From an uncultured Alphaproteobacteria bacterium (GTDB lineage Bacteria > Pseudomonadota > Alphaproteobacteria > CAAHEQ01 > UBA3637): DNA of 64,000 nt. Position 1 is the stretch's first letter; every line of letters starts with the position of its first letter. A model generated the notes under the pieces. That model worked only from the letters and a program-made list of their open reading frames with translations. It searched no databases and was not told the origin of the DNA. Location of the stretch: contig CAKPYH010000004.1 of the NCBI GenBank assembly GCA_934202735.1, positions 73,407-137,406 of the forward strand, given 5' to 3'. Made by a program: the position numbers and the translations under genes. Positions 132 to 19,716 of this stretch are shown piece by piece.

Positions 132-608
132 ATGGGATTTTTTTTGACTATCTGCGCATTTTTTGGCCATCGCGATACTCCGATGTCAAGCAACATAGAA
201 AACCACCTAACAGAGTTTGTTAGGGATTTGATAAATTATCACAAAGTAGATGAATTTTGGCTGTGTGGACAAGGCACGTTTGATTGTTTAGCTCGTCTTG
301 TCATGAAAGAATTAAAAAAAGAATTTAATTGGATCAATCTTTGCATATTTCCCGCATATTATCCCAACAACGCTAAAATGGATTGGATTGAAGACAACGA
401 CTATGATATGATGTATCCTGATGAAGTCGCAAAAGCACCTCCACAAGTCGCTATCTTGCGCCGTAATGATTATATTGCTAAAAATGCTGATTATATCATT
501 TGCTACATCAAACATAATTCAGGTGGAGCATATACGGCAGTCAAACGTGCCGCAAAGAATGAAAAGAAAATAATTAACATAGCAAATACTTCAGATGTTA
601 CGTTCTAA
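132..608 (+). CDS. SLOG-superfamily protein, YpsA/DUF1273-like
   Basis: By-eye alignment to B. subtilis YpsA: ICAFFGHRD ~ LAITGYKP, WLCGQGTFD ~ LISGQLGVE, Rossmann-like layout. Confidence 0.5.
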   Translation: MGFFLTICAFFGHRDTPMSSNIENHLTEFVRDLINYHKVDEFWLCGQGTFDCLARLVMKELKKEFNWINLCIFPAYYPNNAKMDWIEDNDYDMMYPDEVAKAPPQVAILRRNDYIAKNADYIICYIKHNSGGAYTAVKRAAKNEKKIINIANTSDVTF

Positions 609-713
609 CACAATTTTTAATTTGTTTAAAAGGAAAATAATCATTTCCTAATCAAAATCAATGGTACAATATCCGCAAGTAAAAATGTTCCTTCCAATGT
701 AAAACGAATCGTT

Positions 714-1286
714 TTATTCATTTGCCATTAGCTCTTTTTCACTTTGAGGGATAACGTCCTCAACATCATTTACTATTGTCAATAATCGTAATACTTTTAC
801 ACTTAGGAAACCCTCTTTTGCCAGATGTTTTAGTAATTTATAGAAAGGCGTGAAAAAATTATTAATATTCACAATAATTATTGGTTTTTTGATTATTCCT
901 AACTGTTTTAATACCATGAGTTCGGAAATCTCGTCTATTGTACCCAGTCCTCCTGGCAATACACAAAAGACATCTGCCTTTGAAATCATTGAAAACTTAC
1001 GTATAGATAATTTTGAATAAATATGTAGTTCATTAAGGTATTCCTCTTTTGTTAGATCAGGTCGCTCTAAATCAAAAAGCTCTCGAATAGTAAAGCCAAC
1101 GACATAACCTCCATTACTTTTGCAATTTGAAGCAATGAATTTCATTAATCCTGTGTTTCCCGCCCCATAGATCAATTGAATGTTATTTTTTGCCAAAAGA
1201 ACCCCTAAACGTCTAGCGACATTCTCATAGGACACGTTCTTTCCAACCTTACCGCCACAAAATACGCATATCTTTTGTAATTTCAC
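714..1286 (-). CDS. LOG family protein (cytokinin riboside 5'-monophosphate phosphoribohydrolase-like, TIGR00730)
   Basis: YGAGNTGLMKF...GGYVVGF and VLPGGLGTIDEISE (PGGxGTxxE) motifs. Confidence 0.75.
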   Translation of the reverse strand: MKLQKICVFCGGKVGKNVSYENVARRLGVLLAKNNIQLIYGAGNTGLMKFIASNCKSNGGYVVGFTIRELFDLERPDLTKEEYLNELHIYSKLSIRKFSMISKADVFCVLPGGLGTIDEISELMVLKQLGIIKKPIIIVNINNFFTPFYKLLKHLAKEGFLSVKVLRLLTIVNDVEDVIPQSEKELMANE

Positions 1287-1324
1287 TAAATACCCCTTTT
1301 TACATTGTAAAATAGCAGTAAAAA

Positions 1325-1362
1325 AATTTCAACAAAAAGGTTCCTTTTGCTAAAAAGGGACC
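1325..1362 (-). terminator. Putative intrinsic terminator downstream of glyQS
   Basis: Imperfect hairpin ggtcccttt/aaaggaacc followed by T-run on minus strand. Confidence 0.3.
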
Positions 1363-1369
1363 TTTTATA

Positions 1370-2794
1370 TCAATCTCTTTGATGCTGATTGAAAAATTGT
1401 AGTATGCGCTTGGATGATACCGTAAAATCCTGTCTTGTGTAAAAATCATGAATATATTTTGGAAGATTTTCGATTTCAACATTAATCTGTTTCATTGTAT
1501 CACGATCTCTGACTGTAACCGGATGTCGGCTATCTTCTATTGTTGTATTATCTACTGTTACGCATAAAGGAGTGCCTATTTCATCGTGTCTTCGATAAGA
1601 CTTTCCTATACTTCCACTATTTTCTAAAATAATACGGCCGATTCCAAGTTCTTGCAATTCCCTTCTGAGCCGCATTGCTGTCTGAACCATTTGTGGATTA
1701 TTTTTTACAAGAGGAATGATAGCTACCTTTACTGGTGCTATATGTTTTTTAAACTTCATTACCGCTCTGGTTTTTCCATTTTCTAAAGTTTCCTTTGTGT
1801 ATGCTTCATTCATTAAAACGACCATTGCACGATCAAGTCCCGCAGCAGTTTCAACAACAAACGGTATAAATTCTTTGTTGGTTACTGGATCCCTGTAAGA
1901 CATTTTTACCGATGAGTCTGTATTTGGCATAACGCGTGCTTGAATGTCAAAGTTATTTTGGCTCTTTGTATGTGAACCCAGGTCAAAGTCAGTTCTATCG
2001 TGAATCCCTTCAATCTCATCAAACCCCCAGGGGAATTGGTACTCTATATCTTCGGCGGCCTTTGCATAATGCGCTAAAGTAGTGTGTGGTGTTGTTCTTA
2101 ACTTCTTCGGATCAACGCCCTGTTTTACCCACCACTCTATTCTGTTCTTTTTCCATTCGTTAAACCACTTTTCGTCTTCTCCAGGAGGAACAAAGAACTG
2201 CATCTCAGCTTGTTCAAACTCCCTCATTCGAAATAGGAAATTCCTCGGAGTAATTTCATTACGGAATGATTTTCCGTGTTGAGCAATACCAAATGGCAAT
2301 CTTCTGTTCATAGAATTAAGAACATTGATAAAGTTCAAATAACTGCCCTGAGCCGTTTCTGGTCTCAAATACGCAAAACTTGTGCCATCATCAACAGGAC
2401 CAATATTTGTTTTCATCATAAGCATAAACTTACGAGGCTCTGTTAAATCAGAAGAACCACAAGTATCACACTTTGTAGGATCTTTCATTTTATCCTCTCT
2501 CATTCTTGAGTGGCAATGTTTACATTCCACTAGTGGATCAGAAAAGGTATCTTCATGTCCAGAATGTTTCCATACCAATCGGTGTGAAAGATGTGAGCAT
2601 TCGACTCCCTCAATGTCGTCACGTTCATAAATCATGCTCCTCCACCAACTATCACGAATATTTCTTTTAAGCTCTATGCCTAATGGGCCAAGATCATATA
2701 CGCCTTTTAGCCCCCCGTAGATTTCAGAGTTTTGAAAAACAAATCCTCTAGCTTTGGCTAGTGCGACTAATTCTTCCATATTTTCAAAAGCCAT
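1370..2794 (-). CDS. glyQS: Glycine--tRNA ligase, alpha2 homodimeric type
   Basis: N-terminus [22 protein letters not shown] and full length match class II GlyRS (GlyQS type). Confidence 0.9.
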   Translation of the reverse strand: [474 protein letters not shown]

Positions 2795-2932
2795 TTTTTT
2801 CTCCTAAAATTTTACAAAAGACAACAAATATCGTAAAGATAAGCAACATTATATCATATTTTTTATTTATTGTCAACCTTTTTCTTTTTTTTGTATTTTT
2901 TTATAAATATTAACATCCGTTTCACAAATATA

Positions 2933-2960
2933 TTGACAATTTCATAACATCTTATATAAT
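2933..2960 (+). promoter_or_regulatory. Sigma70-like promoter TTGACA-16-TATAAT driving SerRS-like operon; RBS AAGGAG at 2998-3003
   Basis: ttgaca at 2933-2938, tataat at 2955-2960, in divergent intergenic region. Confidence 0.5.
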
Positions 2961-3012
2961 ACCTGCGTATATTTGTAACTTTCTGTTTCTTAAACACAAG
3001 GAGACTCCTCAT

Positions 3013-4233
3013 ATGATATCTCTAAGTTATCTAACGAATTTGACGCATTTCAATGAATTATGTGCTTCTATGCAAGCTCGTAATGCTTTAGATTTATTTA
3101 AAAGTTTTATCGAGCAATATGAGATGCTTTCAAGAGATGCTTCATTTCCGTCATTTCATGAACTTGAAAATAAAGCTCGTTCTATGACGTTGGAAGAAGT
3201 TAATAATCCTAAAGATGCTACATCAAAAATGCTTTCGACATACTTGAGCCTTCCTAATATATCACACAGAATGGTTCCAATCGGAACATCGTCAGCACAA
3301 AATATCATACTAAAAAAATCTAATCCAAAAACTTTTCAAGAAAAAATGGACTACGAACAAATAGCTTCTATTTTTGGAATTTTTTCTCAGAAAATGAATG
3401 AGAACATTGCGGATTCCGGTTTTCCTGTATTGTCTGGTGTCGGACCAAAATTGGAAAGAGCACTCATTGAACTAATGTTAGATCATCACGCAAGATATGG
3501 ATACGACGAAATATCTATGCCAATACTTACTCACGAACGTACATTTTTTATGGCCGGTTCGTTTCCTAAACATCAGCATAATGTGTATAAAATTCAGGAT
3601 ACATCATTGTATTTAAATCCAACGATTGAAATGCAGGAAACAAGTTTAATCAGAAACAGAATATTTGATTTTACAGAACTACCAATGAAGGTTGTTGGCT
3701 TTGCAAGATCATTTAGAATAGAAAAAGGAAGAAGTATGGATTTGTACACAAACCTGCATGAGTTTGGGAAAGTGGAATCTTTTACTGTTTGTCGAGAAGA
3801 TCAATGGGAAGAAGTGTTGAATTTTTTATCTAATATGCTTGAAGATCTTCTAGACAACCTTGGATTCGTATGGAGAAAATTATTACTCTGTACTGGAGAT
3901 ATGGGTCAAGCAGGTTCGTTCACTTGCGACTATGAAATTTGGGCACCGGGTCAAAAAAAATGGTTAGAGATATCGAGCCTGAGTTACCGATCTACTTTTC
4001 AGGCTGTACGGCTTAATGCGATATATCATACACCAGATGGAGAAGAAAAATACGTCCATACTTATAATACACCAGGGTTTGCAATTCCCCGAGTTTTTGC
4101 GGCATTATTGGAGTGTATGTATCAAGATGACGAAACACTCCGTATTCCGGATTGTCTAGTCGGACGTTGTGGATTGCCATCAGTTGTATCTAAAGATACT
4201 TATTTCTCACACTTAACTAAAAACAAAGGATAA
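3013..4233 (+). CDS. Seryl-tRNA synthetase-like class II aaRS paralog (possible amino acid ligase)
   Basis: LLCTGDMGQAGSFTCDYEIWAPGQKKWLEISSLS matches SerRS motif-3 region (LCTGDMGF..YDLEVW..EISSCS); N-terminal arm atypical. Confidence 0.7.
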   Translation: MISLSYLTNLTHFNELCASMQARNALDLFKSFIEQYEMLSRDASFPSFHELENKARSMTLEEVNNPKDATSKMLSTYLSLPNISHRMVPIGTSSAQNIILKKSNPKTFQEKMDYEQIASIFGIFSQKMNENIADSGFPVLSGVGPKLERALIELMLDHHARYGYDEISMPILTHERTFFMAGSFPKHQHNVYKIQDTSLYLNPTIEMQETSLIRNRIFDFTELPMKVVGFARSFRIEKGRSMDLYTNLHEFGKVESFTVCREDQWEEVLNFLSNMLEDLLDNLGFVWRKLLLCTGDMGQAGSFTCDYEIWAPGQKKWLEISSLSYRSTFQAVRLNAIYHTPDGEEKYVHTYNTPGFAIPRVFAALLECMYQDDETLRIPDCLVGRCGLPSVVSKDTYFSHLTKNKG

Positions 4234-4237
4234 AAAT

Positions 4238-4894
4238 ATGAACGATATACATACAAGTGAAAGTTCTGTAAAAGACTATTTTACGGATGTTTATAATGAA
4301 GAGGCTTCCTTAAATAATATTCCTTGGGTTACAGGAGCTGTTGGTATTGAGATATTAAAAAAAGTTATTGGAAAAAAATTTCCATTAGCTTCGAATGTTT
4401 TAGATGTTGGTTGTGGTTTTGGTACCGAGGCTGTTTTCTTGGCTAGACATGGACATCATGTTATTGGAGTTGATACAGACGCCACAATTATAGGCAAGGC
4501 TAAAGAGTACGCAAAGCTTTTAGATACATTTGTTGATTTTAGAGTCTGCAATTTTCTAAAAACCGTTGAACAAAGTGAATTATCCTCTAGATTTGATATA
4601 GTCATTGATCAAGGATGTTTTCATCATATTTTACCTCAAGATAGACAAGCTTATAAAAATGCAGTAGTGCATTGTTTAAAAAACGGTGGCAAGTATTTAA
4701 TGAGAGGTTTTTCAAATCTGATGCCTCCTTCCACCTCCGGGAATGGACCAGTACGATTGACATCCGATGATATTTTAAATACTTTCTTATCTGACTTTTA
4801 CGTAGATGAAATGTACGTATTTGACAATATTCCTGTTGTGGGAAAAGAAGATATGCCTCAAAAATTCTGGTTTGTTTCCTTAACAAAAAGGTAA
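4238..4894 (+). CDS. Class I SAM-dependent methyltransferase
   Basis: VLDVGCGFGTEAVFLA (motif I GxGxG) followed by acidic residue after beta2 (VIGVDTD). Confidence 0.7.
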   Translation: MNDIHTSESSVKDYFTDVYNEEASLNNIPWVTGAVGIEILKKVIGKKFPLASNVLDVGCGFGTEAVFLARHGHHVIGVDTDATIIGKAKEYAKLLDTFVDFRVCNFLKTVEQSELSSRFDIVIDQGCFHHILPQDRQAYKNAVVHCLKNGGKYLMRGFSNLMPPSTSGNGPVRLTSDDILNTFLSDFYVDEMYVFDNIPVVGKEDMPQKFWFVSLTKR

Positions 4895-4898
4895 TTTT

Positions 4899-6182
4899 AT
4901 GAAGAGGATACTTTTTTCGGCACAAGGTTTTGGATTTGGACCAACGGCTAAAGCAGCTGTTGTTGCCACGTGGCTTCAAAAATATAAGTCAGATATTGTA
5001 ATGGATTTCATAGGATCTGGTTCTGCATATGAGTTGGCCCGATCGAGAAAAAGTATTTTTACAAATATATACAATGGCAAACAGTTGGCAACAATTCGGG
5101 AAAAAATTAAAAACAAATATTATGATGCAGTTATTTCTGTTATGGCACCACAAATAACTTTGATAGCTCATGTTTTTCACATTCCTGTCTTTTTAATTGA
5201 TAGTTTGTACTGGTTTTGGGATTGGAGACCTGATCGTATAGATTTCCTTTCGGCATTAAAAATTCAAACTCTTGAAGATATTTCTGCCATTTTTCAACAA
5301 ATACATCCACACGAACAACAATTTTTAGCTCATCGCTATGCATCAATTTCGTATTTGCAGGCTTGTTTTGATGAAGAAAAATCTTCTCGTAATATAAACC
5401 ATATTAAAAGAAAAAAAATTATAGCACCTATAGTAGACACATCTTTTATTTCTAAAAAAGAAAGGAATAATGACAATACCGTGGTTTTAAGTTTTTGTGG
5501 ACAATTTAATCCAATTGTTGATTCTGGAGAAGTATTGGATTATTGCAAACTTGTGCTAGCAGTAACCCGTGATGCATTTATTGACCTTTTGAAAAAAACA
5601 AACAATCGTTTACTTATTATTGGGCATCCTTATGTTATAGAGAATCTCCCTCAAATTATTAAATCACTACAATTTCCTGATGTAGATTGTGAACATCTTT
5701 GCTATCAAGATTACTATAAGACTATTAACTCGGCAGCAGCTATCATTGCTCCACCTTCTTTGACTACTTTCTATGAAAGTTGTGCGTATAACAAATCGTT
5801 AATATTGTTGCCAGAGCAACATGACGGACATTGGCCAAACTTTAAAACAATTACTAGGTATGAGAGGAAAGAAAATACAATTTTCCCTGGAAAAATGTTA
5901 ACACCAATGATAACCGATTTAAATGGGATGAAAGAAAATGATATCAAGTCATTATATAAGAAAATCAGAAGTATAAACGAAAATCAAAATAATTCTCTGT
6001 TTATACAACTTAAAAATGCCTATACACAAATAATTAACGATATTTCGAATGCGAGTTATCGACAAACTCTTATGAAAAAGCAGAAGTTGTATTTTGAACA
6101 TTATTTTTCATTACCGTCTACAAAGGCGGAGGAAATTATATTAGATATCAAGGAGTATCTGAATGAAAGTATTAGGAATTGA
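4899..6182 (+). CDS. GT-B fold glycosyltransferase-like protein (uncertain)
   Basis: N-terminal FGFGP..AKAAVVA and C-terminal IIAPPSLTTFYESCAYNKSLILLP resemble GT1/MurG-like donor-binding region. Confidence 0.3.
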   Translation: MKRILFSAQGFGFGPTAKAAVVATWLQKYKSDIVMDFIGSGSAYELARSRKSIFTNIYNGKQLATIREKIKNKYYDAVISVMAPQITLIAHVFHIPVFLIDSLYWFWDWRPDRIDFLSALKIQTLEDISAIFQQIHPHEQQFLAHRYASISYLQACFDEEKSSRNINHIKRKKIIAPIVDTSFISKKERNNDNTVVLSFCGQFNPIVDSGEVLDYCKLVLAVTRDAFIDLLKKTNNRLLIIGHPYVIENLPQIIKSLQFPDVDCEHLCYQDYYKTINSAAAIIAPPSLTTFYESCAYNKSLILLPEQHDGHWPNFKTITRYERKENTIFPGKMLTPMITDLNGMKENDIKSLYKKIRSINENQNNSLFIQLKNAYTQIINDISNASYRQTLMKKQKLYFEHYFSLPSTKAEEIILDIKEYLNESIRN

Positions 6183-8283
6183 AGGTGAAATTGTTGAAGT
6201 AAAAAAACCAGTTCGCTTGGCTGTCATTGGTTGTGGCAGTCATGTATATAGGAATATTTTACCCTCTATACGCTTTATACCTAATGCTATTATAACTGTT
6301 TTTTGTGATAAGAATACTGAAAAAGCAGAATTATTCGCAAAATATCATGGCGTCGAGACATGGTGCTGTTCAGCGGAAGAATTACTGAAAATGTTCCCAG
6401 AGAAATTTGATGCTTTGTTAGTAATTGTTGGTTTCTCCCCAGATACAGGAAAGCCTTTGTATTCTGAAATTGTCCCATCCTTCCTAAAGCGAGGAATTCC
6501 AGTTTGGATGGAAAAGCCACCCGCAGCATCTTGTGAAGAATTAGCTTCATTTGTGGCTGCTTCTAAACAAGGAAATACCTTTTTCCAGACTGGTTTTAAG
6601 ATGATGTTTGCCCCCGCTCTACAACAAGTAAAAAAATTGATGAATTCTGATAAATTTGGCGTACCTCAATCATTTGATATATCTTATGCAGTTAGTTTTC
6701 CGTCAGACATTCGAGATCTCACAAATATTAATGCTAGAAGGTTCTTAGATGATATTGTCCACATTTTGTCCCAAATACAATTTCTATTTGGATGCCCATA
6801 TAGAATGACAACTTTCAGAGGCGGAGAAAACGATGCTATAGCCATATTAGAGTATAAAAATGGTCTTACTGGTGCCATTCGAATATTAGGTGGAATAAGC
6901 ATTACAGGTCCTGCTGAATATTTAAGAATTGTTGGTACCTGTGATAAAGTAGATAACGGGACTCTTATTGAATTAAAAAACTCCGAAGAAATAACTCTAC
7001 ATGAACCAGGAGATCCTGGCGCTTATGGAAGAGACTTTTCGTTTATTAGAACTGATGGAACACACACACATGTATGGAGCCCAAATCTTAGAAAACCATT
7101 GGGAGCATTGAGTTTACACTCACATTCCTTGTATGGCTATATCAATGAGTTGTCTGCATTTGTAAACAGCGTTGAAAATAAAATTCCATCGATCGTTGCA
7201 GGTATAGAAGATACGCAAGCTATTATGAAAATGTACGATGCGTTTGCCGCAGATAACGCAAAGCCTCATATTCTCTCAAAGAAAATACGCACAAGTACTT
7301 TACCTGATACTATTTCAATTATAGAGGAGTTTACGTGTGACAATTGTTATGGACGTATGTATGTTAAGGATGGCTGGACGGCCAAGTGTGAAAATTGTGG
7401 CAAGACGGTTCAACTAATAAAATTTGAAAATAGATGGTCTCAAACTTCAGTCCGCAGAATTTTAAAGGATGTGTTAGAAAATCTTTCTATTGTTCCAGAG
7501 ACTTTAGATGCATGCCTTAAGTATAATAAGGGTATTGCAAAAGATAATTATAGAAGATGTTTTGTTGATCTTCGCGTAAAGAAAAACGCAAAGAAAACTT
7601 ATGATTATTTTATAAAAATAGCAAAAAATCCGAATGATATCTTTCCAGAGACTGAATATAAAGCTTTATCTCTGTTAAAAAGTCTTCCCTTTGTTCCTTC
7701 TGTATATGGGAAACCAAATCCTAAATATATTATTCAGCAATATATTGATGGCATAACTCTTTATTCGTTATTGAAAACAAATTTTGAGTCCTGCAAAGAT
7801 ATTCTATTAAAATCGGTAAAATGTTTGGCTGATTTTCATAAGACCTTTCGAAAAAGTGGTAAAAAACCATTTGGGTATGTCCATGGAGATATAGATCCGT
7901 GGCAAATTATTGTAGAAAAAGATGGTAATATAACAATTATAGATTGGGAAGACTTTAAAAAGGATGGTAATCAAATACATGACATCTTAAATTTTGTATT
8001 CATGGTTGGTGTTATTTATCTAGGTGAGAATACATCTGCTAAAGAAAAAGCAGAAATAATTCTGTATCAGAAATCGAAATTAACTGAATTAATTTTTGAC
8101 ATGCTTTCTACTTATTCCGAGGAAACATTAATCCCTGTAAAAGACATAATTGATGAGATTCCATGTTATGCTAAAAATCGGCTTATTAGACTTCAAAAAA
8201 TGTCAAGACCATCTGAAAATTTCATATATTCCTACCTTTTAAACGTTTGCAAAAAGGATATTGTATGGAAGAAAACCCAATAA
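6163..8283 (+). CDS. Fusion protein: Gfo/Idh/MocA NAD(P) oxidoreductase + zinc ribbon + APH/ChoK-like kinase domain
   Basis: N-terminus VRLAVIGCGSHVYRNILPS Rossmann; CDNCYG..CENCGK ribbon; YVHGDIDPWQIIV..IIDWED kinase catalytic/DFG-like motifs. Confidence 0.6.
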   Translation: MKVLGIEGEIVEVKKPVRLAVIGCGSHVYRNILPSIRFIPNAIITVFCDKNTEKAELFAKYHGVETWCCSAEELLKMFPEKFDALLVIVGFSPDTGKPLYSEIVPSFLKRGIPVWMEKPPAASCEELASFVAASKQGNTFFQTGFKMMFAPALQQVKKLMNSDKFGVPQSFDISYAVSFPSDIRDLTNINARRFLDDIVHILSQIQFLFGCPYRMTTFRGGENDAIAILEYKNGLTGAIRILGGISITGPAEYLRIVGTCDKVDNGTLIELKNSEEITLHEPGDPGAYGRDFSFIRTDGTHTHVWSPNLRKPLGALSLHSHSLYGYINELSAFVNSVENKIPSIVAGIEDTQAIMKMYDAFAADNAKPHILSKKIRTSTLPDTISIIEEFTCDNCYGRMYVKDGWTAKCENCGKTVQLIKFENRWSQTSVRRILKDVLENLSIVPETLDACLKYNKGIAKDNYRRCFVDLRVKKNAKKTYDYFIKIAKNPNDIFPETEYKALSLLKSLPFVPSVYGKPNPKYIIQQYIDGITLYSLLKTNFESCKDILLKSVKCLADFHKTFRKSGKKPFGYVHGDIDPWQIIVEKDGNITIIDWEDFKKDGNQIHDILNFVFMVGVIYLGENTSAKEKAEIILYQKSKLTELIFDMLSTYSEETLIPVKDIIDEIPCYAKNRLIRLQKMSRPSENFIYSYLLNVCKKDIVWKKTQ

Positions 8284-9731
8284 AAAAGTATGATACAATA
8301 ATTATTGGAGCAGGTCCAGCAGGGGCATTTTCGGCAATTTCATTAGCAAAAAGAGGCCTTAATGTCTTATTGTTGGAAAAAGGTGGAACTTTTTCGGACA
8401 ATTTATGCAAACATTTTGTAAAGCAATCATTCGATTCATCTTTAAAAGAACCCTATTGTTGTCATCAACAATGTTTGTCTGGATTTGGAGGAGCGGCTCT
8501 CCATTTTGAAGCCAATTTCGATAATTATCCTTATAACAATAATATTGATAAGCAGCGTATAAAAGACTTCACATTTTCTTCTTCTCTACAATCCGTTCTT
8601 GGTGAAAAAACTGAATTATATATTTCAAAATTCTATGATTTTATGTTTGATGCAGCTTTGGAAAAAACGGACACATTCTCGATAGATTCTGTTTCTCACT
8701 ACGTCAAAATTAGTTCATCAGGAACAATCCCTGTAAATTTAGCGAATATAAGAAAAATAGTAACTTGTTTAGAAAAAAACATTATACTATATAAAGTTCA
8801 ATACTTGACGAAGAGAAATGTTACGACTATTCAGCGAACAGGAAATTATTTTTTAGTTTCGTGTTTAAGAGATGGTGGAATATCCGGAGATGAAAATAGT
8901 GAAAGTGAACTTTTCCTTGGAAGTACCGTAATAGTCGCTACGGGGTATCGTAGTATGCCTTTTGTATTTAATTTAATCAAAGAACATAAATTAAGTCATA
9001 CTTTTCCAGATGATGTTGAATTAGGATTTAGGCTTGAAACTCCATCAGTTTATGCAGAAAAAATACTGGGCACTCAATATAATCCAAGAGTTAAGAGTCT
9101 TTGTGGAAAACACAGGACTTTTTGTATCTGTTCTGGTGGACGAATAATGAAATATCCATTTTCATGGGAAAGCAAAAATTTTGTTCTAGACGGACAACAC
9201 GCATATACACAGAAAGGAAATAAAACGAATTTTTCCCTATTATCTAAAGTCAAAGTTCCCGCAAATAAAAACAGTTATGAATACGTACATGATTTTGTGG
9301 AAAGCGCTAATAAACTAACACCTGGTTTCATCCCTGTTCAAAAATTACTTGATTACATAAACAAAAAAGCATCATCACAGAAAGAAATTGAGAAGCTATC
9401 TCTAACAATTTGCGGTTGTTCGGCAACGAATTTATTATCTCTAGTCCAAAAATATTCTATTCAACTTGATTGGTTTTTATCTTTTGCTAACGATATGTTA
9501 CCCAAACCAAAAGAATTTTACGATTCAACACTTTTGTTAGCTCCATCGGTTGTTAAATATGCACCTAGAATTTCTTTAAATGGAACTGAGAGCAGCATTA
9601 AAGGATTATATTTTATTGGAGATGCCTGTGGCTTAGTTTCTGGAATTTCTGCGGCTGGTGCAATGGGATTAATGGCCGCAGATCAAATTATAGAAAGTAA
9701 ATTAAAAAAAGGAGATTTTCATAATGAATAA
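8247..9731 (+). CDS. FAD-dependent oxidoreductase (HI0933/COG2509-like)
   Basis: YDTIIIGAGPAGAFSAISLAKRGLNVLLLEKGG dinucleotide-binding motif; ~490 aa. Confidence 0.6.
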   Translation: MQKGYCMEENPIKKYDTIIIGAGPAGAFSAISLAKRGLNVLLLEKGGTFSDNLCKHFVKQSFDSSLKEPYCCHQQCLSGFGGAALHFEANFDNYPYNNNIDKQRIKDFTFSSSLQSVLGEKTELYISKFYDFMFDAALEKTDTFSIDSVSHYVKISSSGTIPVNLANIRKIVTCLEKNIILYKVQYLTKRNVTTIQRTGNYFLVSCLRDGGISGDENSESELFLGSTVIVATGYRSMPFVFNLIKEHKLSHTFPDDVELGFRLETPSVYAEKILGTQYNPRVKSLCGKHRTFCICSGGRIMKYPFSWESKNFVLDGQHAYTQKGNKTNFSLLSKVKVPANKNSYEYVHDFVESANKLTPGFIPVQKLLDYINKKASSQKEIEKLSLTICGCSATNLLSLVQKYSIQLDWFLSFANDMLPKPKEFYDSTLLLAPSVVKYAPRISLNGTESSIKGLYFIGDACGLVSGISAAGAMGLMAADQIIESKLKKGDFHNE

Positions 9732-10914
9732 TACTATGTCTTTTTTATATCCCGTCCTAACTGAAAAACATTTATCTGCTATCCAGAAATGCTTCTTGGA
9801 AAATGACATATCGTTTCCAAAAGAAAATGGTATTACACGAGTACTAGAAGAAAAACTGAAACAGTTTTTTGGTGTTGATTATTTATTAACGATGAACAAT
9901 GGAACTTCTACTCTTCATTCTGCTTTTTTTGCAATCGGGGATGGATTTAATCCCTCAAAAGCCTTAGAAGGCAAAGAATTATTGTGTCCTTCTTATACTT
10001 GGTGGGCCTCAATTTTACCAGCAGTTAATTGTGGAGCTACAATTAATTTTGTCGAGATTAATGAAGAGACTTTAACTATGGATCCTCAAGATGTAGAAAG
10101 AAAAATTAACAGCAAAACGGCGGCAATTGTTATTCCTCACCTCTTTGGACAAGTTTCGAATTTAGATGAAATAGGTCATATTTCAAAATCACATCATATT
10201 CCAGTAATTGAAGACGCATCTCATGTTTTGGGATCTTATTGGAGAAATAAACCTGTTGGAACACTTTTTGATATAGGTTGCTTTAGTATGCAAGCTGGAA
10301 AGCCTTTATGCGCCGGAGAGGGAGGAATTTTTTTAACAAAGAACAAGCGTTATTATGAACGCGCACTACTATTAGGTCATTATGAAAGGGCTAGAAAAGC
10401 GTTAACTTCTTTTGTTGATTATGCACATATTGGGCTTGGATTTAAATACAGAATCAGTCCTCTTTCTGCTGCACTAGCTTGTGTTGAATTTGATGAATTA
10501 GTAGATCGGTTAAGAAAAGAAAACGAACTTCACAAAACGTTCTATTCAGCCTTAGAAAAAATTCCTTTCATCAAAGTGCCAAGACAAAATTCTTCTCTTT
10601 TTCAGCCAGGAGGACATTTCAGCTATAGAGTCTTAATAGACATGGAAGATCTTTCGATATCCAAAGAGAGTTTGATATCAATATTGAATAAGAGGAGGGT
10701 TCCTTTTGAAAATGAATTCTATCCTCTCCTCCACACATTTAAAGCATTCGAGGATAAAGCTGTAAATTTTGGGTATGGAAAATTAGCAAGAACAGAGGCT
10801 CTTTACAAAAATTCCTTTGCAATGCCTATCTTTCGTGTGGGCACATCTACAGAGGCAATTTTAAAGTGTGTAGAAACTTTAGAAAAAACGCTATCAGAGT
10901 TTAGAAAAAAGTGA
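9724..10914 (+). CDS. DegT/DnrJ/EryC1/StrS family PLP-dependent aminotransferase
   Basis: Typical DegT layout; AAIVIPHLFGQ, IPVIEDASH, FSMQAGKPLCAGEGG motifs. Confidence 0.8.
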   Translation: MNNTMSFLYPVLTEKHLSAIQKCFLENDISFPKENGITRVLEEKLKQFFGVDYLLTMNNGTSTLHSAFFAIGDGFNPSKALEGKELLCPSYTWWASILPAVNCGATINFVEINEETLTMDPQDVERKINSKTAAIVIPHLFGQVSNLDEIGHISKSHHIPVIEDASHVLGSYWRNKPVGTLFDIGCFSMQAGKPLCAGEGGIFLTKNKRYYERALLLGHYERARKALTSFVDYAHIGLGFKYRISPLSAALACVEFDELVDRLRKENELHKTFYSALEKIPFIKVPRQNSSLFQPGGHFSYRVLIDMEDLSISKESLISILNKRRVPFENEFYPLLHTFKAFEDKAVNFGYGKLARTEALYKNSFAMPIFRVGTSTEAILKCVETLEKTLSEFRKK

Positions 10915-11058
10915 TCTGTATACCAGCTACATGGTTAATTTGCGTAATTGACTACACAAAAACTTACTCAACTGACCGACTTATGAGAACATGAGATGGA
11001 GTAGAACTACCTGAAATTAAGTGATCTTGCCCGTATAAACCAATCAATTTTTATGAGA

Positions 11059-13128
11059 TCAAACTATAAATTGGTGCATTAAGCTTGATATGTCCCCCAA
11101 AAGGTAAACTCTGTTCCTGTGTTCTTCATTATTATCCTTTGATAAGATCATGTTATTATCAAAAAACACGTTAACTAATTTACAGCACCCATACATAACA
11201 TTGACAAAAGAAATATAATCACTTTCCTTTAAATGATTTTTTGCCAAATCTTTAACCTTATTATATGCATCAAAAACAGCTTGCTCATCAGGATTTTCAA
11301 TCAAAGTAGCATTGAATGTTTGTTGTCTTTCTTCTTTTGATATTAAGTTATCAATTCGTTGTAACGTTTGTGTGAAGGTTTGAAATTGCTCCGTAGAAAG
11401 TAAAGACGTAATGGTTGAAGCTTTCTTTTCAATTGTAACAACATTAATAGAGGATAAATCAATTCTATTAATCACGTCCGTAATAGAATATTTTAAATCC
11501 TCAGCCAACATAATGGACAGACGTTGTTTACTGAAAGAAATTACATAATTAACGAACTCTTCTTTTGTCGTTTTTTCCATGGTATAGAAATCATGATAAA
11601 GATCGGCAAGTTGAGAAACAACATCACTCAATGTCAGATCAAAATTAAATTTACGTATTATTGATAAAACACCAATAGTCAAACGTCGTAAGGCAAAAGG
11701 ATCTTGAGACCCTGTAGGTCTTAAATTTACAGCACATAAACCCAGAATAGTATCCAGTTTATCTGAAATAGCCATAACAGCTCCAAATTCAGATTTAGGT
11801 AACATATCATTAGCAAAACAGGGGCGATATTGATCTTCAATAGCGCAGCTTATTTCTTCGGAGTATCCTTCTTCTCTTGCATAAATTCCTCCCATAATTC
11901 CCTGAAGTTCTGAAAATTCACCAACAACGGCAGAAACTAAATCAGCTTTAAAAATTGGAGTAATAGTATTAATATTTTCCGATAAATTAAGTTTCAATTC
12001 TTTAGCCAAATAATTAGCAATTTTAGAAACTCGTTTCATTTTTTCTACGTAATTACCAAGCTTTGTCTGAAATATGACATTAACCAACTTTTTAGACTTA
12101 TCCATAAGAGTTGTATTTTTATCCTCTTTATAGAAAAATTCGCCATCCTTTAAACGTGCTGTTAGCACGCGTTGGTTTCCTTTGATGACATTCTCCATGC
12201 AGTAATTATCACCGTTTCTGACAAAGACAAACTGATTTATGAGCTTTCCATCCTTATAAACAGGAAAATATCTTTGATGATCTTTCATTGGGGTAATAAT
12301 AATAGGATCTGGAAGAGACAAAAATGATCTATCAAAATAGCCAACGGCAACAGTTGGATATTCAACGAGGTTTACAATCTCTTCTAACAGATCATCATCA
12401 ACAGAAACTTGAATACCATTATCAGATTCAATTTTTTTAATTTGTTGTAAAATTAAATTTTTCCTTTCTTTTTGATCAATAATAACAAAAGCTTTTTTCT
12501 GTTGTTCAAAATAGTTATCAACAGAGGAAACATCAAATGGCATGTCAGCCAAAGTCCGATGTCCAAATGTAAAATTTGAACTTGATAAAAACTCCAAGGA
12601 GAAATTAAGAGAAGTCTTTCCTAAAAAAGCTAACACCCATCGAATAGGACGTATAAATTTACCAACAAAAACATTCCAACGCATAGGATTCGGTTGATAA
12701 ATGGACATTATAAGTTTTGGTAGAACATTTTCTAATACAGATATGGTATTCTTGGCAGCTGTTTTTTGTTTTGCAAAAATATAATCTACCCCTTTGATCG
12801 CAGCAATATAAGTATCTTCAATCTTTAACTTTCTGCCTTGTAAAAAACCCTCAAAGGCTTTAGTTATATTTCCATGTTCATCATAAGCATTTGCCTTTGC
12901 AGGTCCTTTTATATCCAGTTCTTGTTCAGAAATCTGTGTAGCAATAGAACTTATATATAAAACCAACCTTCTAGGAGTGTGAAAAACCTGTAATCCATCA
13001 AACAATATTAAATTATCTACAAGTGCCTTTTCTATGTTTTCTTTCAAACTATTAGCCATATCTTTTACATACTGAGCTGGAATTTCCTCAATTCCAATTT
13101 CGAGTACAAATTTATCTTGTGACATCAT
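11059..13128 (-). CDS. glyS: Glycine--tRNA ligase beta subunit
   Basis: 689 aa, N-terminus MSQDKFVLEIGIEEIPAQYV typical of GlyS; immediately downstream of glyQ. Confidence 0.9.
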   Translation of the reverse strand: MMSQDKFVLEIGIEEIPAQYVKDMANSLKENIEKALVDNLILFDGLQVFHTPRRLVLYISSIATQISEQELDIKGPAKANAYDEHGNITKAFEGFLQGRKLKIEDTYIAAIKGVDYIFAKQKTAAKNTISVLENVLPKLIMSIYQPNPMRWNVFVGKFIRPIRWVLAFLGKTSLNFSLEFLSSSNFTFGHRTLADMPFDVSSVDNYFEQQKKAFVIIDQKERKNLILQQIKKIESDNGIQVSVDDDLLEEIVNLVEYPTVAVGYFDRSFLSLPDPIIITPMKDHQRYFPVYKDGKLINQFVFVRNGDNYCMENVIKGNQRVLTARLKDGEFFYKEDKNTTLMDKSKKLVNVIFQTKLGNYVEKMKRVSKIANYLAKELKLNLSENINTITPIFKADLVSAVVGEFSELQGIMGGIYAREEGYSEEISCAIEDQYRPCFANDMLPKSEFGAVMAISDKLDTILGLCAVNLRPTGSQDPFALRRLTIGVLSIIRKFNFDLTLSDVVSQLADLYHDFYTMEKTTKEEFVNYVISFSKQRLSIMLAEDLKYSITDVINRIDLSSINVVTIEKKASTITSLLSTEQFQTFTQTLQRIDNLISKEERQQTFNATLIENPDEQAVFDAYNKVKDLAKNHLKESDYISFVNVMYGCCKLVNVFFDNNMILSKDNNEEHRNRVYLLGDISSLMHQFIV

Positions 13129-13140
13129 TTAAAAACTCCT

Positions 13141-13983
13141 CTAACATTCTTTTGACAAATACAATTTTGCAATTTCTTTCATTACATTTCTAATACGAGC
13201 AATATAATTAGCGCGCTCAGTCACACTAATAGCTCCTTTAGCATCTAACACATTAAAGGTATGGGAACATTTTAAGGCAAAATCATATGCAGTATATATG
13301 TTTTCTAAAGCCACCAACCGTTTTGCTTCTTTTTCGTAATTATTAAAGTCCAACAAAAGTTGTTTATCGTCGCATAGTTCAAAACAATACTTAGAATGAT
13401 CATATTCTCTCTGATGATAAATCTCCCCATATGTTTCTGCAGGACTGTACTGAAGATCGTATACATTTTCAACATTTTGAAGATACATTGCTATTCTCTC
13501 AAGTCCATAGGTAATTTCTACGGTAATTGGCTTACATGTCATTCCCCCAATTTCCTGAAAGAATGTAAACTGGGTAATCTCCATTCCATCTAACCATACC
13601 TCCCATCCTTTTCCAAAAGCCCCAAGAGTTGGAGATTCCCAATTGTCTTCGACGAACCTAATGTCGTGTTCTTTCTTATTAAATCCAATAAACTCAAGGC
13701 TTTTAATATAAATGTCGACAATATCTATCGGAGAAGGTTTTATAATAACTTGAAATTGGTGATGTTGATAAAGACGGTTAGGATTATCTCCATAACGTCC
13801 ATCAGCAGGACGTCTTGAAGGTTCAACGTATGCTCGCGCAAGCTTTTTATTTCCGAGCGAGCCAAAAAACGTCAAGGGATTCATAGTACCTGCACCCTTT
13901 TCAACATCGTATGGTTCCCCAATGGTGCACCCTTGTTCTTTCCAAAAATCACGTAGTTTTAATTTTAGTTCCTGAAAATCCAT
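13141..13983 (-). CDS. glyQ: Glycine--tRNA ligase alpha subunit
   Basis: [35 protein letters not shown] matches GlyQ. Confidence 0.9.
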
Positions 13984-14093
13984 CGTTTACCTCGTCAAAA
14001 TATAAAATCTCTTAGGATGATACACAAAAATAAGCCACTTGTCAATAATTTAGTAAAAAAATCCATTTATTTTTAACACATACAGATAACATA

Positions 14094-14291
14094 TTAAAGA
14101 AATTCACATAAATCATCGTAAACCACATTGTTTCTATCAATTTGACGGACAGTTTCCGGGGTGTCGTGTTCATAATCCGCATACACAGGTTCGTATAAAA
14201 GGCAAAAATCACCGTTTATATTTGTTGTGCAACCGCTTAACGCGCTTAAGGCTAGCCAGGCTATCCCGACTTCTTTTAGCTGTTTTGACAT
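14094..14291 (-). CDS. o-spanin (Rz1-like outer-membrane lipoprotein)
   Basis: Signal peptide plus lipobox LSGC; start embedded out of frame in 3' half of upstream Rz-like ORF. Confidence 0.5.
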   Translation of the reverse strand: MSKQLKEVGIAWLALSALSGCTTNINGDFCLLYEPVYADYEHDTPETVRQIDRNNVVYDDLCEFL

Positions 14292-14430
14292 TGTCCATTG
14301 CTCCTTTCATGACTTTCACTTGTTCTGTTTCCTTGCCGCGCCGATAGCCGAGTATGTATAAAACAGCCACGGCTCCGGCGATTATCCAATATTTTGTTTT
14401 ATTCCAAGCTGTCATTATGAGTGTTAACAT
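14209..14430 (-). CDS. i-spanin (Rz-like), short
   Basis: N-terminal TM helix WIIAGAVAVLYILGY then charged periplasmic segment; overlaps Rz1-like gene. Confidence 0.4.
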   Translation of the reverse strand: MLTLIMTAWNKTKYWIIAGAVAVLYILGYRRGKETEQVKVMKGAMDNVKTAKRSRDSLASLKRVKRLHNKYKR

Positions 14431-14459
14431 TATTTTTTCCTTTCTTTTTTTGAATTGAT

Positions 14460-14993
14460 ATGTTACTTTCTCCTCAGGAGTATAAAATGAAAATACAATT
14501 ACGTCCTTTACGCCAACACGAAACGGAAGATGTGTATCTTCTTTTTCAAGCTATTCCAGCACAGGAGGAAGGTTTTGATAATTTTGCAAACGGCTTGTCA
14601 AAAACGGATTTTGAAAAGTTTATTTTACATAACATCGATCGGGCAAATGGTGTTGGGCTTGATAAAGGGTATTTAAGCCACACAATTTACATATTTTTTA
14701 TTGATGGGAAACCTGTTGGTATTTCCAAAATCAGGACCTATTCTGACAACACCCTATTAAAACGCGGCGGGCATATTGGTTGCGCAATCAGTCCCGCTTT
14801 CAGAGGAAAAGGCTACGGCACCTTATTGCTGGCCGAAACCATAAAAGAGGCTCACAAAAAAGGACTAAAAGACATTTTAATGGGATGTTATAGCAGCAAT
14901 TTACCCTCTAGTCATATGATTGAGAAGAATGGTGGTGTATTAGAAGAAAAAAGCAACAACATTTCATGGTATTGGATAAAACCAAAGACTTAA
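14460..14993 (+). CDS. GNAT family N-acetyltransferase (moron inside lysis cassette)
   Basis: GHIGCAISPAFRGKGYGTLLL acetyl-CoA binding motif; AT-rich, opposite strand to phage genes. Confidence 0.75.
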   Translation: MLLSPQEYKMKIQLRPLRQHETEDVYLLFQAIPAQEEGFDNFANGLSKTDFEKFILHNIDRANGVGLDKGYLSHTIYIFFIDGKPVGISKIRTYSDNTLLKRGGHIGCAISPAFRGKGYGTLLLAETIKEAHKKGLKDILMGCYSSNLPSSHMIEKNGGVLEEKSNNISWYWIKPKT

Positions 14994-18149: not shown

Positions 18150-18265
18150 TTATTTATTCCATAAAAAATCCCCCACAAATATGTAAGGGAAAATTATCTC
18201 CGCAGTAATACAAAGGTAAGGATAAGAATTATTCATGCCATAAAATGATAAGATAGGATTTAATC

Positions 18266-18643
18266 TTATTCATAATTTTCTAATTCGGTTGTTAATGATT
18301 CCACAATCCGATCTTTTTCTTTTTTAGATAATGTTTTTACATTATCTCTAATATGATTTCTTAAAGAAAGCAGATCTTCATAATCTAGATTTCCAACAAC
18401 TTTGGCATTTTTAATTTCATTAGGTTCAAAATGAAAAACTCTATTGCAAGATACAAAACTATCATGTTCTAGGTAATTATTCTTTTTTTTAGCCAAAGGC
18501 ATACATTCATATAATTTTCTATTTAAAGAATTTATACAAAAGAATAAATTATCGTCAACTACAACACAAACAGAGTATTTATAATTGCTAGGAATAATTT
18601 GCTTATTAAAAAGATACAGGACGTTTCCAATTTCTAATGCCAT
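18266..18643 (-). CDS. Putative toxin partner of Panacea-domain protein (unknown fold)
   Basis: 125 aa, AT-rich, start 2 nt after stop of upstream Panacea gene. Confidence 0.3.
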   Translation of the reverse strand: MALEIGNVLYLFNKQIIPSNYKYSVCVVVDDNLFFCINSLNRKLYECMPLAKKKNNYLEHDSFVSCNRVFHFEPNEIKNAKVVGNLDYEDLLSLRNHIRDNVKTLSKKEKDRIVESLTTELENYE

Positions 18644-18644
18644 T

Positions 18645-19163
18645 TTAGAAAACCATTTTTTCTGTAAGATCTCCCATGTCTTCTAAATCGGCAAGTACAT
18701 CTTCGTTATTAATCATATCTTCATAAGGTATGGGACAAGAGCGTGTATTTTTTAATTCTTCTTTGTGTTTTTCCCATGCTGGATGAATATGATTCTTGTT
18801 TTTTACTTCGGAAAATGATAAATCTGCGTATTCTGAAATTCCATGTTCCAAAGCCTCTATATCCGTATCAGAAAAAACATCTAATGTTGGACTCGAGTTA
18901 GCTTTAAAACCGTTCTTTGAACATTTATAAAAGGGAACATTTTGCGTAATTTCTAGTAAATCTTTCATTAAGCTTGGAACGGTACCATAATTCATCGCTA
19001 CATAATTTTCCCCATAAATAGGACGCCCGTATTTATTTAAATGATAACAATCAGCATCAAACATCACTTTCATAATGTTATATTTATTGATACCTGGCTT
19101 TCTATTCAGTATCCAAAGCAAACACTGCATAGCCTTTTCTGGATTCTTTGTAAACTTTATCAT
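18645..19163 (-). CDS. Panacea-domain (DUF4065, SocA/GepA-like) putative antitoxin
   Basis: IMKVMFDADCYHLNKYGRPIYGENYVAMNYGTVPS matches Panacea core (KLLY.AD..HL...GRP..G..Y.A...GPV). Confidence 0.55.
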   Translation of the reverse strand: MIKFTKNPEKAMQCLLWILNRKPGINKYNIMKVMFDADCYHLNKYGRPIYGENYVAMNYGTVPSLMKDLLEITQNVPFYKCSKNGFKANSSPTLDVFSDTDIEALEHGISEYADLSFSEVKNKNHIHPAWEKHKEELKNTRSCPIPYEDMINNEDVLADLEDMGDLTEKMVF

Positions 19164-19291
19164 TTATCCTCTCAATCTTCGAGTTCTTCTGCAAGGTAAA
19201 AGCTTTTTAATAATGAATGTGCTAAAAACTACTTTTTATTATACAGTTTTTTTAAAAAAAGTCAAGTTATTTTCTATATGGCGTAAATCAT

Positions 19292-19696
19292 TTATTTTCC
19301 TTTTACCCTATAATAGCTATCAATTTGCCAGCCGCACAGGCGCATAGACGGCAAATCCTGAAACACCACACCACTATCGTGGCAACAATGGAGAACGCCT
19401 CCACCATCAACATCTAGCCACAGGCCAGCATGAACGGGATATTTAGATTGCCTAAGCAAAACGACATCACCGTCTTGCGGCTTTTCAACTTCATTAAATG
19501 CCCGGAAAGCAGGATCCTCTTTGAATGCAATTAAAACGCTCCGGAGATTATCCGGATTAACGTTTACCGCCGGCACATCTATGCCGTATTCGTGCTTCAG
19601 GATCCAGCGCACCATTCCCCAACAGTCAAATTCATCAGGGCCTTGCGCACCGGCAACCCAGGGCAAGCCTATATATTTACAAGCAAAATGTGTCAT
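19292..19696 (-). CDS. Phage tail assembly protein K-like NlpC/P60 peptidase
   Basis: FDCWGMVRW (catalytic Cys) and HAGLW (His) spacing typical of NlpC/P60; position before tip protein. Confidence 0.65.
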   Translation of the reverse strand: MTHFACKYIGLPWVAGAQGPDEFDCWGMVRWILKHEYGIDVPAVNVNPDNLRSVLIAFKEDPAFRAFNEVEKPQDGDVVLLRQSKYPVHAGLWLDVDGGGVLHCCHDSGVVFQDLPSMRLCGWQIDSYYRVKGK

Positions 19697-19716
19697 TTAA
19701 TTACTTTTTTATCTGA

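Follow-up and report, generated by a model that had tools for sequence, protein, structure and literature searches.

What does a shortened relative of seryl-tRNA synthetase (SerRS) do in an operon of sugar-modifying enzymes lying between two complete glycyl-tRNA synthetase (GlyRS) systems? The question is raised by positions 3013–10914 of a 64-kb stretch of contig CAKPYH010000004.1 from an uncultured alphaproteobacterium (the whole stretch is called the window below). An earlier reading of the letters, here the original prediction, had seen in the operon an aminocyclitol or aminosugar pathway, and our analysis supports a small-molecule pathway of aminosugar, aminocyclitol, or nucleoside type. 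More specifically, we regard it as an even call whether the operon and its surrounding block build an amino-sugar small molecule that is decorated with amino acids by translation-derived enzymes, the product being probably of nucleoside type.

The operon and its SerRS paralog

ORF calling gave six tightly packed, co-directional open reading frames (ORFs) on the plus strand of 3013–10914, with junctions of +4, +4, −20, −37, and −8 nt. This agrees with the overlapping, single-strand arrangement described earlier but not with the seven genes then counted; the dehydrogenase and the kinase form one fused 706-aa ORF. An AAGGAG ribosome-binding site lies upstream of the ATG at 3013, and the sigma-70-type promoter serving the six genes, previously called near-consensus, is in fact a perfect match (TTGACA-16-TATAAT, 12/12; 2933–2960, plus strand). 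A second perfect promoter (TTGACA-17-TATAAT, 12/12, with an extended −10 TG; 2848–2876, minus strand) faces the alpha2-type GlyRS gene. Within positions 600–14500, these are the only two 12/12 sigma-70 matches, and both lie in the 218-bp region upstream of the operon. The operon is flanked by the alpha2 GlyRS on one side and glyQ-glyS on the other, and the unit reaches past 3013–10914: the LOG gene, a gene with a weak YpsA-SLOG match, and both GlyRS systems belong with it to one low-GC block. No T-box, tRNA gene, or Rfam element was found in the block.

The first ORF (3013–4233, plus strand) encodes a 406-aa protein in which the class II core is intact and the coiled-coil arm has collapsed. 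It scored 238.4 bits against the SerRS model TIGR00414, under the cut-off of 301.65, and aligned to model positions 77–414 only, while the true SerRS genes of three related loci (numbered L019, L026, and L033 among the loci compared) scored 444–461 bits. Pfam gave no match to Seryl_tRNA_N (PF02403), alignment with true SerRS placed a deletion of ~27–30 residues in the coiled-coil arm, and in the AlphaFold2 model (predicted local distance difference test, pLDDT, 92.5) no N-terminal helix exceeds 14 residues and there is no long coiled coil; the N-terminal arm had been rightly described as atypical. The motif-2 loop, which in SerRS touches the acceptor stem, is three residues shorter in the alignment, with the conserved DTRG gone. 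The coiled-coil arm is the tRNA-Ser binding element of SerRS (PMC10817482). Invariant between the paralogs and true SerRS are R235 and E237 of motif 2, F251, T204 and E206 of the TxE motif, E255, E319, and R360 of motif 3, and T350 is nearly invariant. The peptide strings LLCTGDMG...EISSLS, earlier assigned to the motif-3 region, are present in the protein but represent the stretch between motifs 2 and 3; motif 3 lies elsewhere and reads GFAIPRVFAALLE.

The closest database relatives of the protein (P0001–P0017) form a small, purely metagenomic clade whose members all lack the Seryl_tRNA_N domain. Ordinary SerRS come after this clade, at ~30–35% identity, and the sequence matches in PDB were only to bacterial, mitochondrial, and cytosolic SerRS and to ThrRS. 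No second SerRS was found within the 64-kb window. Because its TIGR00414 score is below the cut-off, Seryl_tRNA_N is missing, and the model has no long coiled coil, the classification of the gene as a divergent paralog rather than a normal SerRS is supported at the level of sequence and model. We infer that the protein would still form seryl-adenylate and pass serine to a non-tRNA acceptor, acting as an ATP-dependent seryl ligase.

The third ORF (4899–6182, plus strand), described as glycosyltransferase-like in the original prediction, encodes a 427-aa protein. Pfam gave no match and a PDB search by sequence alone was uninformative, though the AlphaFold2 model (pLDDT 87.4) matched GT-B/GT1 natural-product enzymes with a Foldseek probability of 1.00, among them plant UDP-glycosyltransferases, YojK, LanGT2, CalG, OleD-type enzymes, and GtfD. 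The protein thus models as a GT-B fold glycosyltransferase of the GT1 (small-molecule) type, and its family is rare: a search covering 5.8 billion proteins returned only 15 homologs. Two distant relatives were seen in other settings. The one in L012 (5254–13904; Streptosporangium sp. KLBMP 9127) lies in a nonribosomal peptide synthetase (NRPS)-type cluster with condensation, carrier-protein, and adenylation genes, two Gfo/Idh/MocA genes, and a xylose-isomerase-like TIM barrel, and the one in L014 occurs with NRPS, BtrH_N, UDP-glucose dehydrogenase, an ATP-grasp enzyme, and an adenylosuccinate-synthase-like gene.

In loci L004, L008, L019, and L024–L027, a C-terminal SLOG (LDcluster4) domain is fused to the glycosyltransferase. 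The window carries a stand-alone LOG/SLOG protein of the TIGR00730 family (714–1286, minus strand; Lysine_decarbox 6.8e-28, LDcluster4 1.1e-12, TIGR00730 145 bits against a 96-bit cut-off), with the motif LPGGLGTIDE of the PGGxGTxxE type. Its alignment with the SLOG domain at the C-terminus of the L008 fusion (29% identity over 98 aa, E=6e-9) indicates a fusion-versus-split relationship, and the protein is, judged by this alignment, the probable free counterpart of the fused domain. A 158-aa protein with a weak YpsA-type SLOG match (132–608, plus strand; PF06908 E=1.9e-4, below the cut-off; GC content at third codon positions, GC3, 0.33) also sits in the low-GC block, and whether it is part of the system is uncertain.

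The domain calls made earlier for the SerRS-like protein, the methyltransferase, the dehydrogenase–kinase fusion, the FAD enzyme, and DegT all hold by Pfam/NCBIfam. The second ORF (4238–4894, plus strand) is a TPMT-like methyltransferase dependent on S-adenosylmethionine (SAM; Methyltransf_25 3.4e-15, TPMT 9.2e-10) and is kept in every cluster variant. The fused 706-aa ORF (6163–8283, plus strand) joins a Gfo/Idh/MocA NAD-dependent dehydrogenase (approximately residues 1–420) to a RIO/APH-like kinase (approximately 450–700); the two are separate genes in the distant relatives L004 and L008. The top NCBIfam match of the dehydrogenase is IolG, a weak one at 39 bits, and for the kinase domain a PDB search by sequence alone was uninformative. 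The FAD-dependent oxidoreductase (8247–9731, plus strand) combines an HI0933-like N-terminus with FAD-depend_C, its true start being probably a few codons downstream of 8247; it is present in the window, L001, L010, L011, L008, and L026 and absent from L004, L019, and L033. The last ORF (9724–10914, plus strand) encodes a pyridoxal phosphate-dependent aminotransferase of the DegT/DnrJ/EryC1 family (PF01041 1.4e-65), whose nearest solved structures are the sugar aminotransferase 7b0m and 2-deoxy-scyllo-inosose aminotransferases.

Synthetase pairing and the low-GC block

A conserved core recurs in seven lineages, gut Alphaproteobacteria among them, and consists of the methyltransferase, the glycosyltransferase with or without SLOG, the Gfo/Idh/MocA dehydrogenase, the kinase, and DegT, with the FAD enzyme added in some. 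The close relatives, at 77–80% protein identity, are L001/L002, L010, and L011 (= L017), L010 and L011 coming from metagenome-assembled genomes (MAGs) named "Proteobacteria bacterium MAG-R073" and "Alphaproteobacteria bacterium Tb.RUG.243". The distant loci, at ~38% identity, are low in GC (L004–6 = L025, L008, L019, L026, L027, and L033), and the metagenomic contigs carrying them may be from bacteria of the Candidate Phyla Radiation (CPR). Wherever a lineage offers enough flanking sequence, a genuine aminoacyl-tRNA synthetase (aaRS) gene and a truncated aaRS-like gene, one of each, are found next to the core. The pair is an alpha2 GlyRS and an arm-less SerRS-like gene in the window, L001, L004–6, and L008; glyQ-glyS and a SerRS-like gene in L010 and L011, where no alpha2 GlyRS was found within 10 kb; a full SerRS and a 372-aa SerRS-like gene in L033; and a full SerRS and a 400-aa AspRS/AsnRS-like gene in L019 and L026. 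As four gene combinations show the same architecture, chance is an unlikely explanation. The link between operon and GlyRS drawn in the original prediction is borne out in that it recurs in distant lineages and that both GlyRS systems of the window sit in the same foreign, strain-variable block. The core has further neighbors in the distant loci: genes for nucleotide handling (NUDIX, CYTH, and Nuc_deoxyrib_tr), plus GNAT, in L004 and L033, and short UDP-glucose-dehydrogenase-like genes in L004 and L026.

Separately from these loci, members of the arm-less SerRS clade occur in a second cluster type (L003 8704–19124 and L007 9435–20493), L003 being from Candidatus Levybacteria, a CPR lineage. 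Taken together, these two loci contain genes for GT4, PIG-L deacetylase, GNAT, radical-SAM, Fe-ADH_2, QueC, DegT, and Gfo enzymes; L007 additionally has an APH kinase and three genes of 7-deazapurine synthesis (FolE2, QueD, and QueE). An rRNA methyltransferase gene of the RrnaAD family is located at the cluster edge in L003, L007, and L008. L009 (3003–8492), also counted among the loci with the core, holds a 64%-identical operon start with the SerRS-like, methyltransferase, and glycosyltransferase genes directly next to genes for a phage-type integrase, AlpA, and a TIR-domain protein. GC on this contig is 46%, GlyRS is absent upstream, and the context suggests that the operon moves on integrative elements. 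In a search of known plasmids for the cluster, the glycosyltransferase had no match and the SerRS paralog matched only ordinary serS at ≤34% identity.

That two complete GlyRS systems flank the operon, as the original prediction stated, was confirmed by NCBIfam, according to which the alpha2 GlyRS, glyS, and glyQ are all genuine. The alpha2-type gene (1370–2794, minus strand; 474 aa) is complete and monocistronic, scoring 547.6 bits against NF003211 (cut-off 312) and 2.7e-21 against HGTP_anticodon. With its own promoter and a terminator-like hairpin on its 3' side (1337–1367), it is a self-contained cassette; the hairpin following it led us to reject the idea that GlyRS and LOG form one operon. 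On the other side of the operon, glyS (11059–13128, minus strand; TIGR00211 699.9 bits, GC3 0.23) and glyQ (13141–13983, minus strand; NF006827 441.5 bits, GC3 0.28) encode the beta and alpha subunits of an alpha2beta2 GlyRS. Both systems differ in orientation among the close relatives. Window positions 1440–2806 are inverted at gene scale relative to L001 8422–9788, the alpha2 GlyRS being divergent from the operon in the window and co-directional in L001, and window positions 11441–13983 are inverted relative to L010 17994–20537, glyQS being convergent in the window and co-directional downstream of DegT in L010/L011. No convincing inverted repeats were found around the inverted GlyRS gene, the only candidates being weak AT-rich 22-nt matches at 77%.

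The alpha2 GlyRS shares 41–42% identity with the GlyRS of L004/L008, as against 60–76% with many GlyRS from Alphaproteobacteria/Rickettsiales MAGs, and the identities do not support its arrival with the cluster from the distant low-GC lineages. Its closest noncluster relatives, at 73–76% identity, are found in L015 (6881–11407) and L016 (3142–10268). There the neighbors are a truncated AlaRS-like gene (353–355 aa), a 338-aa gene resembling class II aaRS of the D/K/N type, one or two Peptidase_S66 genes (MccF/LdcA family), and HIT, HD, GNAT, and methyltransferase genes, which looks like a separate locus for aaRS paralogs or the handling of aminoacyl-nucleotides.

Our favored reading of the block is that it spans about 15–15.5 kb, was acquired horizontally, and is carried by some strains of a gut or rumen alphaproteobacterium but not by others. 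GC is 0.31–0.39 and GC3 0.21–0.33 over the interval from a small ORF, seen in L045 ~0.7 kb outside the left edge of the window, up to and including glyQ, while the flanking P-type ATPase, phage tail genes, RNase J, Obg, and DnaB have a native GC3 of 0.47–0.53. That the GlyRS sets are ordinary, vertically inherited genes of an AT-rich organism, which the original prediction had named as refuting it, does not agree with the GC3 of ~0.5 of the native genes in the same window. The same low-GC block is found in L001 with a different left flank (ligA-recN-bamD-dacC). In clusters at 90% identity, an indirect measure of strain variability that assembly and sampling may bias, most block genes have 4–9 members (glyS 5, SerRS-like 7, alpha2 GlyRS 5, and LOG 7) and core genes of the same organism 33–135, the exception being DnaB with 11; glyQ also has 11, some of them from other lineages. 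Exact sequences of Obg and DnaB occur on 40–49 contigs versus three for glyS. By these cluster and contig counts, the occurrence of glyQS follows that of the operon rather than that of the core genes. A GNAT gene at 14460–14993 was considered as a conserved resistance gene and rejected, having no homolog in the related loci and a core-like 90% cluster of 27 members.

A candidate pathway and its rivals

The enzymes of the block can be arranged into a pathway of six steps, for which we infer all substrates, the step order, and the biological role. First, the LOG/SLOG protein and the GT1-type glycosyltransferase would produce a glycoside, most likely a hexosyl nucleoside whose base is freed from a nucleotide. 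The kinase would then phosphorylate the sugar and the Gfo/Idh/MocA dehydrogenase oxidize one hydroxyl to a ketone, which DegT would turn into an amine. Equivalent oxidize-then-transaminate steps occur in the gentamicin, kanosamine, and streptomycin pathways. In the fourth step, the arm-less SerRS paralog would make seryl-AMP and transfer serine to the amine of the intermediate rather than to tRNA, following the logic of MshC. Genuine GlyRS, of the alpha2 type, glyQS, or both, would give glycine either via Gly-tRNA or directly, and may also shield the producer, as AcmD does in ascamycin biosynthesis. Finally, the methyltransferase and the FAD enzyme would tailor the product. A nucleobase-hexose scaffold is favored because of the coupling of SLOG and glycosyltransferase, the NUDIX, CYTH, and Nuc_deoxyrib_tr neighbors, and the short UDP-glucose-dehydrogenase-like genes, and two different residues, serine and glycine, are favored because the genuine and truncated aaRS usually differ in type and the truncated one keeps its activation residues.

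Parts of this scheme have counterparts in known systems. MshC, a CysRS paralog and the cysteine:glucosamine-inositol ligase of mycothiol biosynthesis, likewise keeps the adenylate chemistry of an aaRS and loads its amino acid not onto tRNA but onto the amine group of a conjugated amino sugar, and partners resembling MshA/B/D (GT4, PIG-L, and GNAT) are present in the related loci L003, of CPR origin, and L007. While MshC derives from a class I CysRS, the window protein is a paralog of a class II, bacterial-type SerRS with putative ligase activity, and its acceptor amine would come from oxidation and transamination, not from deacetylation of N-acetylglucosamine. In the 2010 account of Mocibob et al., amino acid:carrier-protein ligases are said to be truncated SerRS homologs. 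These, too, are SerRS-derived, no longer bind tRNA, and pass their amino acid to an acceptor other than tRNA, as the window protein is predicted to do; they differ in their methanogen-type SerRS origin, the window paralog being bacterial-type by its PDB matches, and in having a linked carrier-protein gene, whereas Pfam found no PP-binding/carrier-protein gene in the block.

In ascamycin biosynthesis, one cluster holds a genuine aaRS, AcmD, which supplies aminoacyl-tRNA and self-resistance, and the truncated aaRS-like AcmF (PMC12945691). The window resembles it in placing a full-length genuine aaRS beside a truncated aaRS-like enzyme, and the acceptor of AcmD/AcmF is a nucleoside analogue. AcmD and AcmF are, however, both of AlaRS type and AcmF lacks the residues for activation of ATP and amino acid (PMC12945691), whereas the window pairs GlyRS with a SerRS-like enzyme that keeps all the activation residues checked. 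In the puromycin pathway, the oxidoreductase Pur10 and the DegT enzyme Pur4 make an aminonucleotide, Pur7 acts in the same pathway, and the aminonucleoside synthetase Pur6 is used (PMC11641026). The puromycin/cystocin systems (Pur10, Pur4, Pur6, Pur7, and PAC) are thus similar in that a dehydrogenase and DegT generate the amine on a nucleoside sugar before aminoacylation and methylation. Compared at the level of families, the block contains the oxidoreductase and DegT families and no protein of unknown function of Pur6 size. The gougerotin/blasticidin route runs through CMP hydrolase, cytosylglucuronate (CGA) synthase, oxidation, transamination, the attachment of seryl and sarcosyl groups, and N-methylation. 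The parallel lies in base release combined with a GT1 enzyme, corresponding to CMP hydrolase and CGA synthase, and serine, glycine, and an N-methyltransferase would parallel the sarcosyl-serine of gougerotin. Gougerotin is made with GouK and GouJ (CoA-type activation and an acyltransferase) and not with aaRS-like enzymes (PMC12835213). We rejected the window operon as a gougerotin ortholog and see a chemical analogy only: the gou cluster has no aaRS-like enzymes, the CGA synthase model is not reached, and the window glycosyltransferase shares with CGA synthase just the GT1/GT-B fold. No ortholog-level identity to the window operon was shown for clusters of the puromycin or gougerotin type.

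Neither such a SerRS paralog nor a bacterial GlyRS duplication of this kind is listed in the reviews consulted, which treat duplicated aaRS and natural-product enzymes dependent on aa-tRNA, and targeted literature searches gave none. A bacterial-type SerRS ligase that lacks the arm and belongs to a pathway for an aminosugar or nucleoside thus appears to be new, and the recurrence of the synthetase pairing in distant bacteria suggests a so far undescribed route by which amino acids are attached to a sugar or nucleoside-like small molecule. The aaRS paralogs that form amide bonds off the ribosome are few (MshC, the amino acid:carrier-protein ligases, AcmF, and SbzA) and each is informative. The pairing of genuine and truncated aaRS in interchangeable types suggests modular variation of the amino acids on a scaffold, and a mobile block with two complete GlyRS systems is unusual and bears on synthetases as substrate suppliers, immunity genes, or both. 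If the low-GC loci are confirmed as CPR, they would represent a conserved specialized-metabolite pathway in very reduced genomes. A broader proposal, which we offer tentatively and consider somewhat doubtful, is that the products are a new family of amino-hexosyl nucleosides decorated with seryl and glycyl residues that inhibit translation or an aaRS, with the arm-less SerRS as a tRNA-independent ligase and GlyRS as a dedicated donor that also protects the producer. CPR bacteria and gut Alphaproteobacteria would exchange the module, and its aaRS parts (GlyRS, SerRS, and AspRS/AsnRS-like) would be swapped to vary the peptide.

Several observations weigh against an aminoacylated amino-sugar nucleoside. 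No recognized aa-tRNA-dependent transferase (Fem/GNAT, CDPS, PacB, or Pur6) was found in the conserved core, which leaves the route of glycine transfer unexplained, and the block has no exporter gene, unusual for a secreted antibiotic. The top family match of the glycosyltransferase, CGA synthase TIGR04467, scores 30.7 bits over a partial region, where the cut-off is 300, and LOG was not found within 10 kb in L001, L010, or L011. An aminocyclitol route would agree just as well with the nearest structures of DegT and the weak IolG-like match of the dehydrogenase. Moreover, the GlyRS or SerRS next to the core in the low-GC loci may be the sole copy of the organism, and the linkage in the four alphaproteobacterial loci could in part be inherited synteny.

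A model taken from the original prediction explains the extra synthetases differently: an aminoacyl-nucleoside or aminosugar would inhibit an aaRS, namely GlyRS, and the additional GlyRS would be purely resistant immunity copies. An extra copy of the would-be target does sit with the biosynthetic genes, as the alpha2 GlyRS and glyQS both lie in, and travel with, the foreign, strain-variable block of the operon. The 73–76% relatives of the alpha2 GlyRS adjoin truncated AlaRS-like, class II aaRS-like, Peptidase_S66, HIT, and GNAT genes, which also fits this explanation. A resistant aaRS within the cluster is classic for albomycin, mupirocin, and indolmycin (PMC9437257) and known from AcmD (PMC12945691). 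Against the model, we know of no natural GlyRS inhibitor, and aaRS resistance is not readable from sequence. The ligase, moreover, has the serine-type T204, E206, E255, and T350, yet the neighboring synthetase is GlyRS. In L019/L026, an AspRS/AsnRS-like ligase neighbors a SerRS, a mismatch of warhead amino acid and immunity enzyme that argues weakly against the model, and the alpha2 copy is not within 10 kb in L010 and L011. The mismatch in aaRS type fits the installation of two amino acids better than a matched pair of inhibitor and immunity enzyme, so we consider the inhibitor model unlikely and a pure immunity role for GlyRS the less likely one.

It is similarly improbable, in our view, that the same enzymology acts on another scaffold, either an aminocyclitol/aminoglycoside-like pseudosaccharide (inositol to inosose to inosamine with phosphorylation, as in streptomycin and fortimicin) or a puromycin-type 3'-amino nucleotide. 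A Gfo/Idh/MocA dehydrogenase, DegT, and an APH-like kinase do follow the logic of StrI, StsC, and inosamine kinase. The dehydrogenase matches IolG best, if weakly (39 bits), and the structures nearest to DegT include 2-deoxy-scyllo-inosose aminotransferases, so an aminocyclitol scaffold is possible. The rRNA methyltransferase of the RrnaAD family at the edge of some SerRS-paralog loci (L003, L007, and L008) also counts for such products, and Pur10 and Pur4 run the same logic on ATP (PMC11641026). On the other hand, the SLOG–glycosyltransferase fusion and the NUDIX/CYTH/Nuc_deoxyrib_tr neighbors point to the handling of nucleotides or nucleobases, and neither an inositol-phosphate synthase nor a 2-deoxy-scyllo-inosose synthase was found in the window block, nor a Pur6 homolog.

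We regard as very improbable the ordinary explanation that the operon serves to modify a sugar of the cell surface (O-antigen, capsule, or glycoprotein) and that the synthetases beside it are unrelated hitch-hikers. In its favor, pathways for surface sugars often include DegT and Gfo/Idh/MocA enzymes, DegT has NCBIfam matches of PseC, LegC, and WecE type, all far under the cut-offs, and part of the glyQS linkage is possibly inherited synteny. Against it, the block and its immediate flanks contain no nucleotidyltransferase, flippase, polymerase (Wzx/Wzy), polyprenyl-phosphate glycosyltransferase, or ABC exporter, so that the hallmarks of the O-antigen or capsule pathway raised in the original prediction were not found; the glycosyltransferase resembles small-molecule GT1 enzymes with the rest of its family in the NRPS-type clusters L012 and L014; and the placement next to an aaRS is found repeatedly, in four gene combinations from distant lineages.

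Surroundings of the block

To the right of the block, positions 15918–44400 hold a lambda-like prophage or a remnant resembling a gene transfer agent, with GC near native. Its genes include a tail tip protein J-like gene, NlpC/P60, DUF1833, a tape measure gene, and a terminase nuclease fragment, and its portal is split in two ORFs (39132–39905 and 39936–40649). Low-GC inserts within it are SocA/Panacea (18645–19163), a 543-aa unknown, a UvrD-like gene (31737–34274), and Fic (37988–39052). A tRNA-Lys(UUU) gene at 46519–46594 marks the border between this prophage/accessory region and core genes of ~50% GC (RNase J, Obg, and DnaB) and is a possible integration site; none of the ORFs checked was found to encode an integrase.

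On the left side, L045 shows a second lower-GC patch beyond the native-GC P-type ATPase (16992–20380, ~5.6–9 kb left of the window start). It contains DUF3850, NUDIX, two Ham1/ITPase-like genes, an Acetyltransf_3 GNAT, and a SKI/ASCH protein, genes that could clean up or detoxify abnormal nucleotides.

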